A DNA stretch of 64,000 nucleotides from Nanobdellota archaeon (GTDB lineage Archaea > Nanobdellota > Nanobdellia > Parvarchaeales > Parvarchaeaceae): assembly GCA_021791655.1 (NCBI GenBank), contig JAJYWD010000003.1, positions 166 through 64,165 on the forward strand, given 5' to 3'. The notes beneath the pieces were generated by a model that worked only from the letters and a program-made list of their open reading frames with translations, ran no database searches and was not told where the DNA came from. Below, in pieces: positions 7,475-19,500 of the stretch (the stretch's first letter is position 1; the number at the start of each line of letters is the position of its first letter). The position numbers and the translations under genes were made by a program.

Positions 7475-7584
7475 TGGGGTCGGCCGGATTTGAACCGACG
7501 TCAAGCGGTTTCTTCTAATCATTCTTTCGTCATTTTTCCAGTCTAGCTGGAGCCGCTTGTTCTGCCAGGTTAAACTACGACCCC
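7475..7584 (-). tRNA. tRNA-Trp (anticodon CCA) with a 37-nt intron in the anticodon loop; CCA not encoded
   Basis: The reverse complement is GGGGTCG TA GTTT..GAAC A AGCGG CTCCAG [37-nt intron] A CCGCT.. GTCGG TTCAAAT CCGGC CGACCCC A. The cloverleaf is complete once the intron is removed. Confidence 0.8.
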
Positions 7585-8126: not shown

Positions 8127-8450
8127 CTAAGAATATTTCTTTATTATCGCCAGTATCTTTTTTATTTCGTCCTCTTTTATAACGCTCTTTAGAGGCGACA
8201 AGATGGCTCTTACCTGATCAGCGTTGGTGGGTGCTGTATCTATAAGAATCCTAACATAGTCGTCGCGGATGTTGAGGTTAAGCGCCAAAATCTCGTTAAA
8301 CGCCTCCTCAAACTTGCTTATTTTCACATTCTTTGACAGATGCTCGATTAACTTTTTGCCGTACTCGGAATTCTTATCTATATTATCTTTATATTTTTCG
8401 TTCAATTCCGTCTCGCTTATTTGCTTCTCGTCGATAACTTCGTATTCCAT
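8127..8450 (-). CDS. rpoF: DNA-directed RNA polymerase subunit F (Rpo4/Rpb4-like)
   Basis: Acidic protein of 107 aa ending ..KILAIIKKY like RpoF. Lies between L21e and the COG1491 gene, as in many archaea. Confidence 0.5.
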   Translation of the reverse strand: MEYEVIDEKQISETELNEKYKDNIDKNSEYGKKLIEHLSKNVKISKFEEAFNEILALNLNIRDDYVRILIDTAPTNADQVRAILSPLKSVIKEDEIKKILAIIKKYS

Positions 8451-8815: not shown

Positions 8816-8933
8816 TCTTTCCTAAAATATTAATACCTTTCCGCTTCTCACTAGTCATGTCCCCGCACGCTGATAAAACATGTAAAAATTACGATAATTA
8901 ATACTGTACCATAGTAAAAATTAAAGTTTATAA

Positions 8934-13189: not shown

Positions 13190-13345
13190 TCAGATGTAAT
13201 TCTCCTCGTCTCCCTGGTTTTCTACTTTCCCTTCTTCGTTCTCTTCCTCTTCTTCGGTGTCCTCGTCGTCGGAAGGTTCTTCATCAACGTCAACATCCTC
13301 GTCTTTAGATTTCTTGGTATTCTCCACTTTATCTTCCTTTTTCAT
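13190..13345 (-). CDS. small highly acidic protein of 51 aa
   Basis: MKKEDKVENTKKSKDEDVDVDEEPSDDEDTEEEEENEEGKVENQGDEENYI, preceded by AAAGGAGAG 10 nt upstream. The tracked TTG start 14 codons earlier lies inside the conserved leader block. Confidence 0.45.
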   Translation of the reverse strand: MKKEDKVENTKKSKDEDVDVDEEPSDDEDTEEEEENEEGKVENQGDEENYI

Positions 13346-13362: not shown

Positions 13363-13403
13363 TTCCATTGTGACATCCTCCCACCAATGGATTGATGGGC
13401 TTC
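13363..13403 (-). promoter_or_regulatory. conserved 41-nt leader block, copy 1, forming a hairpin directly upstream of GGAGGAUG
   Basis: 38 of 41 positions are identical to 19248-19288. The minus-strand RNA reads GAAGCCCAUCAAUCCAUUGGUGGGAGGAUGUCACAAUGGAA. Confidence 0.55.
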
Positions 13404-13691
13404 CGGTTCCTGCTTCATAGACACGACTTGCATGCGGTTTCCCGCGGTGCATGGGCCGGATTCTCGACGGGCTTGACTTCCCCTCTGTCCAAGGGTAACT
13501 CCCTTTTGGGGAGTATTTTATCGGTCTTTCGACCGACCTTTTTTAGGTTTTACGTTTAGTCGACAACCTTTTATCTTAAGCATCGGTCTATTCCTTTTTG
13601 GGATAGACTTCATTATCGATATTATTGTTTTGTTTTCCGTCTATTTATGTTTTCCATCTTTGAGTCCACTCTCACCCCACCGCTAAAGCCT

Positions 13692-13721
13692 GTGGGATTT
13701 CCCGCTCACTATGATAAATTT
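13692..13721 (-). promoter_or_regulatory. putative promoter: TATA-like box with a GGGA-N2-TCCC inverted-repeat operator, copy 1
   Basis: On the minus strand, AAATTTATCATAGTGAGCGGGAAATCCCAC sits just after the pcd stop codon. Near-identical to 19469-19500. Confidence 0.45.
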
Positions 13722-14033
13722 TTACTGTTTGCCGGCAGGATTGGATTTGAATTTCAAAAATGCTTCCTCTATTTTCTTTGCTAGTTCCACGTCCATATCG
13801 GTGAGCGTTCCTGTTTTGTGGGTTGTTAGTTCAAATGTTACTCTGTCATAGCTTATGTAAACGTCAGGATGATGTTGGATTTGGTCGGCAAGCGGCCTTA
13901 CAACATTCAAGAAATCCATAGACTCGTCAAAATCCTCAAAGTTGAATGTCTTAGAAAGTGTGTTGCCAGTTACGAACCACCCTTGTATTTCGGACACCAT
14001 TTTCTCTGCGGACTCAGGAGTAAGTTCGTGCAT
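13722..14033 (-). CDS. pterin-4a-carbinolamine dehydratase
   Basis: Family signature HHPDVYISYDRVTFELTTHKTGTLTDMD. Confidence 0.75.
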   Translation of the reverse strand: MHELTPESAEKMVSEIQGWFVTGNTLSKTFNFEDFDESMDFLNVVRPLADQIQHHPDVYISYDRVTFELTTHKTGTLTDMDVELAKKIEEAFLKFKSNPAGKQ

Positions 14034-14051: not shown

Positions 14052-14336
14052 TCATTTTAATAGCTTTCTGATTTTCTCGGTACACGACACGTCCTGGCGT
14101 AATGTTGCGCTGGAAAAGCTCTTCGCTATTTCTCTGATTGACTTGCCAAGTTTAGGGAGAAGGAGGGAGGAGTCTAGTTCGAAAAGCGGTATTGCTAAGA
14201 AGGCCCTGCTTGCTATCTCAGGATCGGGTATAACTATATCCGAATTTTCCATAATCACGTCGTCGTACAGTATAAGGTCCAAGTCTATTTCCCTCGGTGC
14301 ATTCTTGTCGGCGCTTCTTCTCCAGGAGATAGCTGA
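14052..14336 (-). pseudogene. folK: folK remnant: C-terminal half of HPPK only, with an in-frame TAA at 14337-14339 preceding it
   Basis: SAISWRRSADKNAPREIDLDLILYDD...IPDPEIASRAFLAIPLFEL aligns with HPPK W.PR.LDLDIL...PHP..R.FVL.PL.E. No N-terminal half is encoded. Confidence 0.55.
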
Positions 14337-14514
14337 TTATGTATATAAAAAAGTCAAAGCGCGAGGTGTGTTGGTGGTTATAAAAGCGAGACACATGTGC
14401 ATGGAGATGCGCGGTGCCAAATCGTACGGGGTCGAGACGCTATCCAGTGCGATAAGGGGCAGCTTCGAGAAGCGCCCCCATACCAAGGCGGAAGCGCTTA
14501 AACTTATAACTTAA
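14305..14514 (+). pseudogene. folE: folE remnant: C-terminal ~65 aa of GTP cyclohydrolase I only
   Basis: QEIADYVYKKVKARGVLVVIKARHMCMEMRGAKSYGVETLSSAIRGSFEKRPHTKAEALKLI matches the FolE C-terminus (EHLCMxMRG). The upstream part of the tracked ORF has no CEHH motifs and is antisense to pcd/folK. Confidence 0.55.
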
Positions 14515-16200: not shown

Positions 16201-16292
16201 GGGCTCGTAGCTCAATTCGGTAGAGCATCTGGCTCTTAAATTAAGGATTTAGAGCCACCAGAGTGTTGCGGGTTCAAATCCCGTCGGGCCCA
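16201..16292 (+). tRNA. tRNA-Lys (anticodon CTT) with an 18-nt intron after position 37
   Basis: GGGCTCG TA GCTC AATTCGGTA GAGC A TCTGG CTCTTA [AATTAAGGATTTAGAGCC] A CCAGA GTGTT GCGGG TTCAAAT CCCGT CGGGCCC A. An extended helix GGCTCT.AAAT/ATTTAGAGCC spans the intron junctions. Confidence 0.75.
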
Positions 16293-18681: not shown

Positions 18682-19248
18682 CTAACGCTTTACTTCCGCC
18701 ACGACTTTCCACCACTTGAATTTCTTTTCTATAAAACTGTCCAGGGAATAAGGATTCGTTCCATTAGAAGCGTTCAAAATTATAAGGAAAAGAAAAACCA
18801 TAGCGTAGATTATTCCAGTGCCTATGTCGGTAGATCCTGGACCGTACGGGCCGCCGAATCCTTCTGGGATAGCCCAGATAAACAGACTAAGAATTAGCCC
18901 TCCGCCGTACGCTGTCTTTCTCGCGAATCCCGCGATTAAACAAAACGCGAGTAGTAATTCGAAAACGCCGGTTACATAGACCAGGACCGCAGAATTACTA
19001 TTGGCCTGAGAAAGCCAAAACGAGAACCAGCCCTGCAACCAACCCGGCTGGCCAGCTGCGACACTTTGAACCATCGATGGAAACGCCGAAACCAGACCGG
19101 GCCAGAACTTGAACTGCCCGTCTATGCCCCACATTATACCAAATATTATAGCCAGGGTCCTGCTTATTTTGTATATATTGCGTGCTATCCAATTATCGAA
19201 GCCTGACAGGGGCTTTTTTCCTCGGGCTATTTGAGTATGATACGCCAT
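18682..19248 (-). CDS. DoxX-like polytopic membrane protein
   Basis: Four TM helices with a DoxX-like arrangement. The ATG (MAYHTQ..) follows the conserved leader block directly; the tracked ORF extends upstream through the leader. Confidence 0.45.
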   Translation of the reverse strand: MAYHTQIARGKKPLSGFDNWIARNIYKISRTLAIIFGIMWGIDGQFKFWPGLVSAFPSMVQSVAAGQPGWLQGWFSFWLSQANSNSAVLVYVTGVFELLLAFCLIAGFARKTAYGGGLILSLFIWAIPEGFGGPYGPGSTDIGTGIIYAMVFLFLIILNASNGTNPYSLDSFIEKKFKWWKVVAEVKR

Positions 19249-19288
19249 TCCTTTGTGACATCCTCCCACGAATGGATTCATGGGCTTC
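19248..19288 (-). promoter_or_regulatory. conserved 41-nt leader block, copy 2, hairpin next to GGAGGAUG
   Basis: The minus-strand RNA reads GAAGCCCAUGAAUCCAUUCGUGGGAGGAUGUCACAAAGGAA. The C-G pair of copy 1 is a G-C pair here. Confidence 0.55.
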
Positions 19289-19468
19289 TTTTCGCACGAC
19301 CATCTCCGAAGAGACCTTTCGGCACGATTTATCGCCGACGGATGGCAAATCGTGGGAACAATCTTTAAATGCACTCTCTGTCCGAGAGCCTTCCGTCAAA
19401 GTGTTCACTCGTCCCATATTTATATGCCTTTATTTTTCTGTGTTCGCTTTCATACGCCTCTAAAGAGC

Positions 19469-19500
19469 GTGGGTTTTCCCGCCCACACTTTATAAACTTT
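19469..19500 (-). promoter_or_regulatory. putative promoter: TATA box with a GGGA-N2-TCCC operator-like palindrome, copy 2
   Basis: The minus strand reads AAAGTTTATAAAGTGTGGGCGGGAAAACCCAC. Confidence 0.45.

Follow-up and report, generated by a model that had tools for sequence, protein, structure and literature searches.

IS608 transposes as single-stranded DNA. Its Y1 transposase, TnpA, binds two subterminal hairpins, one at either end of the element. Also named ISHp608, this element of Helicobacter pylori is the mechanistic paradigm of the IS200/IS605 family: on the left, 19 nt separate the cleavage and target motif, TTAC, from the hairpin 3' of it; on the right, the motif TCAA comes after the hairpin and ends 10 nt beyond it; and a 4-nt guide 5' of each hairpin foot reads the corresponding motif (PMC3201880). 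PATEs, which derive from IS605-type elements, have near-terminal palindromes and no inverted terminal repeats, generate no target duplication and are too short for a transposase (PMC3119063). Those of Geobacillus often keep guide RNAs, and TTTAT is a documented target motif of the IS605 family (PMC10055086).

The 64-kb stretch of archaeal DNA analysed here, which we call the window, carries two blocks of related sequence (Table 1) that an earlier note had described as a duplicated promoter and operator under a common regulator. On re-reading the sequence, both minus-strand blocks are present exactly as they had been written down, and a repeated cassette does precede both genes. We propose, at a probability of about 0.88, that the shared block is the left end of a non-autonomous element of the IS200/IS605 family, a PATE, present in two copies that each sit in a TATA box. 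The 14-mer GCGGGAAAWCCCAC occurs twice in the 64-kb window (13692-13705 and 19469-19482) even when up to two mismatches are allowed; alone it is weak evidence, at least two matches being found in 11 of 100 shuffles. The surrounding 62-nt blocks are each other's best non-self local alignment on both strands of the window (score 32, against a 99.9th percentile of 22), a top score that for the locus-2 block is tied with an exact 16-nt match at 8182-8197. The similarity extends past the limits first drawn for it, through CTTTAG-nGG and TGArAG to about 13663 and 19441, giving the GC-rich consensus GTGAGCGGGAAAW-CCCAC-nnn-CTTTAG-nn-GTGGG-rTGArAGyG. What had been read as a GGGA-N2-TCCC palindrome is in fact GGG-AAAW-CCC, and the functionally relevant dyad is CCCAC...GTGGG, whose 3' arm falls outside the block as originally delimited. 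Both blocks lie, as had been noted, upstream of a second conserved block on the same strand (13403..13368 and 19288..19253), a 36-nt sequence identical in the two copies except for two compensatory changes in an 8-bp hairpin. No third copy of the block was found in the window plus 17 kb of extra flank of the same contig (about 81 kb).

Table 1. Features of the two loci (positions in the window)
Feature	Coordinates	Strand	Sequence or basis
Left block, locus 1	13721..13692	minus	reads AAATTTATCATAGTGAGCGGGAAATCCCAC
Left block, locus 2	19500..19469	minus	reads AAAGTTTATAAAGTGTGGGCGGGAAAACCCAC
Copy 1, putative gene-less IS200/IS605 derivative (PATE), 345 nt	13370..13714	minus	ends homologous to and collinear with L029 and L034
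Copy 2, putative PATE, 237 nt	19255..19491	minus	ends homologous to and collinear with viral elements
TTTAT, proposed host TATA-box core and target (transposon-adjacent) motif, copy 1	13714..13718	minus	in-silico excision
TTTAT, proposed host TATA-box core and target motif, copy 2	19492..19496	minus	in-silico excision
Left end, copy 1	13663..13714	minus	viral left-end profile and alignment
Left end, copy 2	19441..19491	minus	viral left-end profile and alignment
Right end, copy 1	13370..13403	minus	match to viral right-end family
Right end, copy 2	19255..19288	minus	fits right-end family pattern; 29/36 positions as in L034
Small acidic protein, 51 aa (MKKEDK...), downstream of copy 1, putatively once leaderless	13190..13345	minus	in-silico excision
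DoxX-family membrane protein, downstream of copy 2	18682..19248	minus	present ATG at 19248

The tied match at 8182-8197 (plus strand) repeats the left-end hairpin of copy 2 exactly over 16 nt (ACGCTCTTTAGAGGCG) and has TTTTATA before it. It runs antisense within an Rpb4-like gene (8127-8450), with a BLAST E of about 0.003, and is probably due to chance; it may also be a transposon footprint.

Relatives of the block were found in viral contigs of IMG/VR. A scan with GCGGGAAAWCCCACNNNCTTTAG gave two contigs, both reading (GTGA)GCGGGAAATCCCAC-nnn-CTTTAG-nn-GTGGGATGArAGCG, with the block about 100 nt upstream of an ORF that encodes TnpB (Pfam: OrfB_IS605, Cas12f1-like_TNB, HTH_OrfB_IS605). Because the search patterns came from the window itself, the identity of the viral relatives at the core positions is by construction, and the case rests on positions and features outside those patterns, namely the left-end positions on either side, a right end that matches independently, the neighbouring tnpA and tnpB genes, the covariation described below and the reconstruction of the promoters. 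Of the 26 positions that the pattern left free, copy 1 and the viral locus L029 share 21 (a manual count), and the homology with viral IS200/IS605 left ends holds over about 50 nt, at the same offset, in unrelated viral contigs. A profile built from three viral left ends only recovers both window copies, at 13712-13663 (E 9.3e-13) and 19489-19441 (E 5.4e-08), the next best match having an E of 0.79.

The other end of the element is recognizable as well. L034, retrieved with a looser pattern, is a complete IS200/IS605 element, with genes for a Y1 TnpA (138 aa) and a TnpB (337 aa) between its left and right ends. The right end, GAAC-CCCACGA-ACTTCAG-TCGTGGG-AGTATGTCAG, had no role in the retrieval of L034 and agrees with the 3' block of the window at 29 of 36 positions. 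The right end of L029, which encodes TnpB only, reads GAAGAAC-CCAAGG-TGCTTTAGC-CCTTGG-AGTATGTCAG. TnpA and TnpB are both encoded by L034, L058, L066 and L081, and TnpB only by L029, L022, L061 and others. The right-end pattern CCCAYNA-N4-9-TNGTGGGAGNATGTCA has 56 copies in 54 IMG/VR loci where we estimate that about one would be expected, and just upstream of 23 of the 56 a TnpB gene ends on the same strand, accompanied in four cases by TnpA; with a long gap in the pattern the matches are mostly chance. In 45 viral sequences the region before the right end is of mixed nature, with tnpB 3' ends, flanks and single-hairpin mini copies among them. Elements retrieved solely by their right end have the left-end motif at the opposite terminus, for example TTAC/GATAGGAGCGGGAAAG-CCCACGA-CTTTAG-TCGTGGG-ATGAGAGCG in L058 and TTAC/GAGAGTGAGCGGGAAAG-... 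in L061 (here and below a slash after the target motif marks the junction), so that the two conserved blocks of the window can be taken as the ends of one element type. L053 and L080 are short, gene-less viral copies with the same layout. A search for the 3' block with the pattern CCATNNNTCCANNNGTGGGAGGATG in GTDB representative genomes and JGI metagenomes gave chance hits only among the three matches listed for each; that pattern demanded GGAGGATG, and most family members carry GGAGTATG.

Between their ends the window copies have little in common with the complete elements. The similarity is limited to both termini, which are collinear; the leaders show no similarity to the TnpB guide-RNA (omega RNA) scaffold region of the viral elements beyond the right end, and GGGGCATCnAC, common in many viral tnpB elements, is absent from them. 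No TnpA or TnpB was detected by tblastn in the window and its flanks (81 kb), the copies being only 345 and 237 nt long, and no target-site duplication flanks either copy. The left block is always accompanied by a matching right end, and the two ends are subterminal palindromes that are not inverted repeats of each other.

The details of both ends fit the geometry of this family. The left end of copy 1 has a linker ending in the guide AAAT (13700-13697), followed by a CCCAC-N11-GTGGG hairpin (arms at 13696-13692 and 13680-13676, loop CTTTAG) and then by GTGAGAGTGGAC. In copy 2 the guide is AAAA (19477-19474), the 5' arm is again CCCAC (19473-19469) and ATGAAAGCGAACAC follows the hairpin, which is degenerate: its 3' arm has decayed to GCGTA in place of GTGGG, and a shorter substitute stem, ACGCTC/GAG(G)CGT (19470-19454), can be drawn. 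The right end of copy 1 consists of the guide GAAG (13403-13400), the hairpin CCCATCAA-TCCA-TTGGTGGG (13399-13380) and a 10-nt tail, AGGATGTCAC, with the cleavage motif TCAC (13373-13370) at its end; that of copy 2 reads GAAG-CCCATGAA-TCCA-TTCGTGGG-AGGATGTCAC. Both right hairpins have 8 bp, CCCATSAA/TTSGTGGG, with a compensatory change from C-G to G-C. The linker from the target motif to the left hairpin foot is 17-18 nt long in the window, 16-19 nt in the viral family, where a stretch of this length, with AAAG at its end, separates TTAC from the hairpin, and 19 nt in IS608. On the right, both window copies end 10 nt past the hairpin foot, and conservation within the right-end family stops one base after ATGTCA.

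The pairing between guides and motifs is visible on the right and fits in part on the left. Across the right-end family, the base 5' of the hairpin foot and the final base of the element change together, as T:A in 22 cases (GAAT with A in 20) and as C:G in 15 (GAAC with G), with one exception, and the two window copies, in which GAAG goes with C, supply the third Watson-Crick state (G:C). On the left, guide and target fit in copy 2 (AAAA/TTAT) and in L029 and L022 (AAAT/TTAA); the left boundary of copy 1 is uncertain by 1 nt, after TTTA or after TTTAT, and its guide AAAT fits the target only if the boundary follows TTTA and not TTAT. The W in the motif of the earlier note is therefore the last base of the guide, which pairs with the last base of the target, as A:T in copy 2 and as T:A in L029 and L022.

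Two further kinds of viral sequence resemble parts of this element. Single-hairpin mini copies (L047, L050, L055, L057, L068, L069, L077, L079, L084, L092 and L093) consist of TTAC, 16-18 nt ending in AAAG, one hairpin and the right-end tail AGTATGTCA(A/G). They look as if left and right ends had been fused around a single palindrome, and they break the rule that links the right-end guide to the last base (AAAG occurs with A nine times and with G three times). In the viral contig L038 (6858-6900, minus strand), GGGAGGATGTCACAATGGAAA is identical over 21 nt to the right-end tail of copy 1 plus its flank; it has no preceding hairpin and lies at an apparently ordinary ribosome binding site and ATG, and the match is probably a coincidence.

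The element reading also specifies where the copies should have landed. TATA boxes of the window (TTTAWAWA) are followed 28-33 nt after their first T by a leaderless start codon or by the first base of a tRNA, and the AT-rich box of locus 2, AAAGTTTATAAA, recurs at 8921-8933 ahead of a leaderless gene. Both the recurrence and the offset indicate that the AT-rich boxes are, as had been supposed, genuine-looking archaeal promoters; the TATA box belongs to the host promoter and includes the target motif of the element, and it is no part of the repeated cassette. In-silico deletion of copy 1 gives AAAAATTTA/AATGGAAAGGAGAGTGTACAACCT-ATG (MKKEDK), which places the ATG at offset 28 (counted from the first T), and that of copy 2 gives AAAGTTTAT/AAAGGAATGGCGTATCATACTCAA-ATA (or CTAAAGTTTAT/AAAGGAATGGCGTATCATACTCAA-ATA), with the ATA at offset 29; the distance from TTTAT to the ancestral start is exactly 24 nt at both loci. 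Since the core of the TATA box is the target motif TTTAT, both copies would have landed between TATA box and start codon, and we infer that in each case the insertion hit a leaderless gene in its TATA box. The predicted empty-site junctions are AAAAATTTA(T)/AATGGAAAGGAG and CTAAAGTTTAT/AAAGGAATGGCG. Five further contigs of this species, from four ENA samples and one JGI sample, align to the copy-2 locus with 100% identity and are for that reason uninformative. A GCGGGAAAT site at 374-381 was rejected as a promoter, as it lies on the strand opposite to a TATA-like match whose plus-strand ORFs look non-coding.

Orthologues of the DoxX gene agree with this reconstruction. In the alignment, Met1 of the orthologues falls opposite an ATA codon at 19230-19228 (IARGKKPLSGFDNW vs MTRSKEALAGFDNW and MKVKGKELSGLDNW), and the present ATG (19248-19246) lies six codons upstream of that codon, in the former promoter spacer. 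The start codon thus appears to have shifted after the insertion, a new upstream ATG taking over from the old one, which is now ATA. In the orthologue with 75% identity the gene has its own TATA box 29 nt before the ATG, and neither leader nor element is present at the orthologues of 75, 65, 65 and 62% identity, which have short, ordinary promoters. At locus 1 the 51-aa protein has no Pfam family, and its gene is followed by that of a GNAT acetyltransferase. The DoxX gene is followed by one for an ABM-domain protein, and the downstream genes of the two loci are unrelated. The ABM gene has its own TATA box 30 nt before the ATG (18598-18568, minus strand), so co-transcription with DoxX is not required. 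For the PCD protein only itself was found as a homologue, and CydA has no relative above 56% identity, the best being from Micrarchaeota at 55%; neither protein led to an orthologous locus or an empty site.

In the first interpretation of this locus, an archaeal repressor binds the palindrome (double-stranded GTGAGCGGGAAATCCCAC) as its operator and controls the two genes together, as a small regulon. Its placement is geometrically right: the offset rule of the window puts the start of transcription just after CCCAC, so that the palindrome does lie between TATA box and start, the block filling offsets 13-27 past the first T of the TATA box while starts fall at 28-33. The block is also GC-rich where other promoters of the window are AT-rich, and small two-locus archaeal regulons are known, for example that of YtrA in Sulfolobus acidocaldarius, which is reported to repress two loci encoding membrane proteins (PMC6746942). 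Against an operator, the same sequence, together with the CTTTAG hairpin and TGArAGyG, forms the left end of viral tnpA/tnpB elements in unrelated viral contigs and is always accompanied by the matching right end; moreover, the arms match at only 4 of 5 positions. Nor does a common regulator find support in the distribution of the motif, which precedes no other gene in 81 kb and is missing at the DoxX orthologues listed above, and no candidate transcription factor gene adjoins either copy. The block is common to the two loci because the same mobile element was inserted twice, not because they share a regulator, and we regard an operator as very unlikely, although a host factor may have co-opted the block secondarily.

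Insertion of the element would have had consequences for both genes. The junction keeps the TATA box intact, TTTAT and the first bases of the element forming TTTATCAT or TTTATAAA; transcription would then begin about 28-32 nt past the TATA box, just after CCCAC, and would read through the whole element, so that two mRNAs that had no leader would have gained one of about 220 nt and one of about 345 nt. Judging from this promoter geometry, both genes very probably now carry the unusually long 5' leaders that had been attributed to them, and internal AT-rich boxes, such as CATATAAATA in copy 2, could act as alternative promoters. The right end contains a sequence of Shine-Dalgarno type, GGGAGG, that complements CCUCC in the 3'-terminal part of 16S rRNA (...GAUCACCUCCU) and would serve as a ribosome binding site: the ATG of DoxX follows 13 nt after GGGAGG, and in copy 1 an 8-codon uORF overlaps the ATG of the gene (AUGA). 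The 16S rRNA gene itself lies 5 kb past the right end of the window (L020, 16501-17997, minus strand), and a 5S rRNA gene lies past the left end, adjoining ribosomal protein genes (L019, 17769-17881, minus strand).

Leaders of this kind could instead be copies of a riboswitch-like RNA, with the 5' block as its opening helix and the 3' hairpin as an expression platform in which the ribosome binding site is masked. Hairpins with GNRA and UUCG tetraloops do occur in them, the fold of leader 1 is better than that of its shuffles (z = -3.1), three hairpins keep their pairing despite changed bases between the copies (by manual reading), and the 3' hairpin overlaps the GGGAGG that pairs with the 16S rRNA 3' end. 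Leader 2, however, folds no better than shuffles (z = -1.25), and no Rfam family matched between 12800 and 19900, by gathering score or at E <= 10, other than tRNAs. The 5' block lies mostly upstream of the start predicted from promoter geometry, the downstream genes are functionally unrelated, and the conserved blocks are exactly the transposon ends, kept in places that have no downstream gene in common. A structured RNA would be expected anyway in an element derived from the guide-RNA region of tnpB, and we consider a regulatory RNA highly improbable. Inspection of the sequence also led us to reject SECIS, H/ACA or C/D guide RNA, SRP or RNase P RNA and a K-turn protein site.

The position of the right end next to both genes raises the question of whether it is coding. 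The 3' block is in frame with both downstream ORFs and could encode a shared N-terminal peptide, KP(I/M)NP(L/F)VGGCH(N/K)G, which would make the cassette a duplicated gene start. The three differences between the copies all fall at third codon positions, and the JGI annotation calls DoxX from MNPFVGGCHKG (P0121). But all three changes are non-synonymous, two of them being compensatory in the hairpin; copy 1 has a stop codon five codons upstream and no ATG; the extension occurs in no other DoxX homologue; and the block is a transposon right end conserved beside unrelated sequences. On inspection of the sequence a coding N-terminal peptide or uORF was rejected, and as an account of the cassette a shared peptide is extremely improbable.

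Some neighbouring features of the window are recorded here for completeness. The intact pterin-4a-carbinolamine dehydratase gene at 13722-14033 has apparent gene fragments beside it: a C-terminal piece of HPPK (14052-14282, minus strand; Pfam E 1.7e-3) and the last 64 aa of GTP cyclohydrolase I (14318-14514, plus strand; E 2e-15), the latter inside an otherwise implausible ORF of 190 aa. The two fragments may be debris of the pterin pathway. Genes for tRNAs with introns lie at 16201-16292 (plus strand) and 7475-7584 (minus strand); for the former ARAGORN gives a 4-base anticodon and Rfam shows a 20-nt insertion. Together with the Micrarchaeota relatives of CydA, these introns mark the organism as an archaeon.

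Reading the two cassettes as PATE copies means that the seemingly common promoter, operator and leader of two genes is a double insertion of a mobile element, which removes a false lead and illustrates how transposon ends can mislead motif-based inference of regulons in poorly sampled archaea. The locus would also be a small, clean example of the remodelling of a gene start, in which the TATA box was kept usable, a leader of 237-345 nt with a ribosome binding site was added and, at one gene, the start codon then shifted, and at the right end it extends the IS608-type rule of guide and cleavage pairing to a third base pair (G:C). A further-reaching idea, which we put forward as doubtful, is that this lineage homes to archaeal TATA boxes through TTTAT and that its retained 3' part is a guide RNA acting in trans for a TnpB encoded elsewhere. 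Were homing to TATA boxes true, insertions in leaderless genes would fall preferentially between TATA box and start, the genes that were struck would survive by means of the regenerated TATA box and the GGGAGG of the right end, and there would be a recurrent route to long structured leaders, to SD-dependent initiation and to new start codons, as in DoxX.

Among systems already described, archaeal promoter-proximal operators such as those of YtrA (PMC6746942) resemble the window blocks in their apparent position between TATA box and start and in their small number of target loci; the YtrA sites are host regulatory sites with a cognate factor, whereas the window block is a transposon end with homologues in viral contigs. 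The correspondence with IS608 is much closer. Both have subterminal imperfect palindromes at the two ends and no terminal inverted repeats, both have the target or cleavage motif outside the element at a fixed short distance 5' of the left hairpin, and in both the right cleavage motif ends 10 nt 3' of the hairpin (TCAA in IS608, TCAC in the window copies). The guides are AAAG and GAAT in IS608 and AAAW and GAAG in the window copies, and many of the viral family members use TTAC with AAAG, exactly as IS608 does. Unlike IS608, the window copies have no tnpA or tnpB, their target is TTTAT (TTAT) and not TTAC, their host is archaeal and they are known here from sequence only. The same TTTAT target is used within the same family by ISGst2 of Geobacillus stearothermophilus (TnpB2; PMC10055086), a bacterial and protein-coding element, which is likened to the window copies by target motif and family. 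The PATEs of Haloquadratum walsbyi and G. stearothermophilus share with them the size, the palindromes and the lack of target duplication (PMC3119063, PMC10055086), as well as IS605-type ends and a plausible origin by deletion of the core, and in both the guide-RNA part may persist. The window pair differs from those PATEs in belonging to another lineage, in being seen as two copies in 81 kb and in having both of them in the TATA boxes of leaderless genes, in the orientation of the gene.
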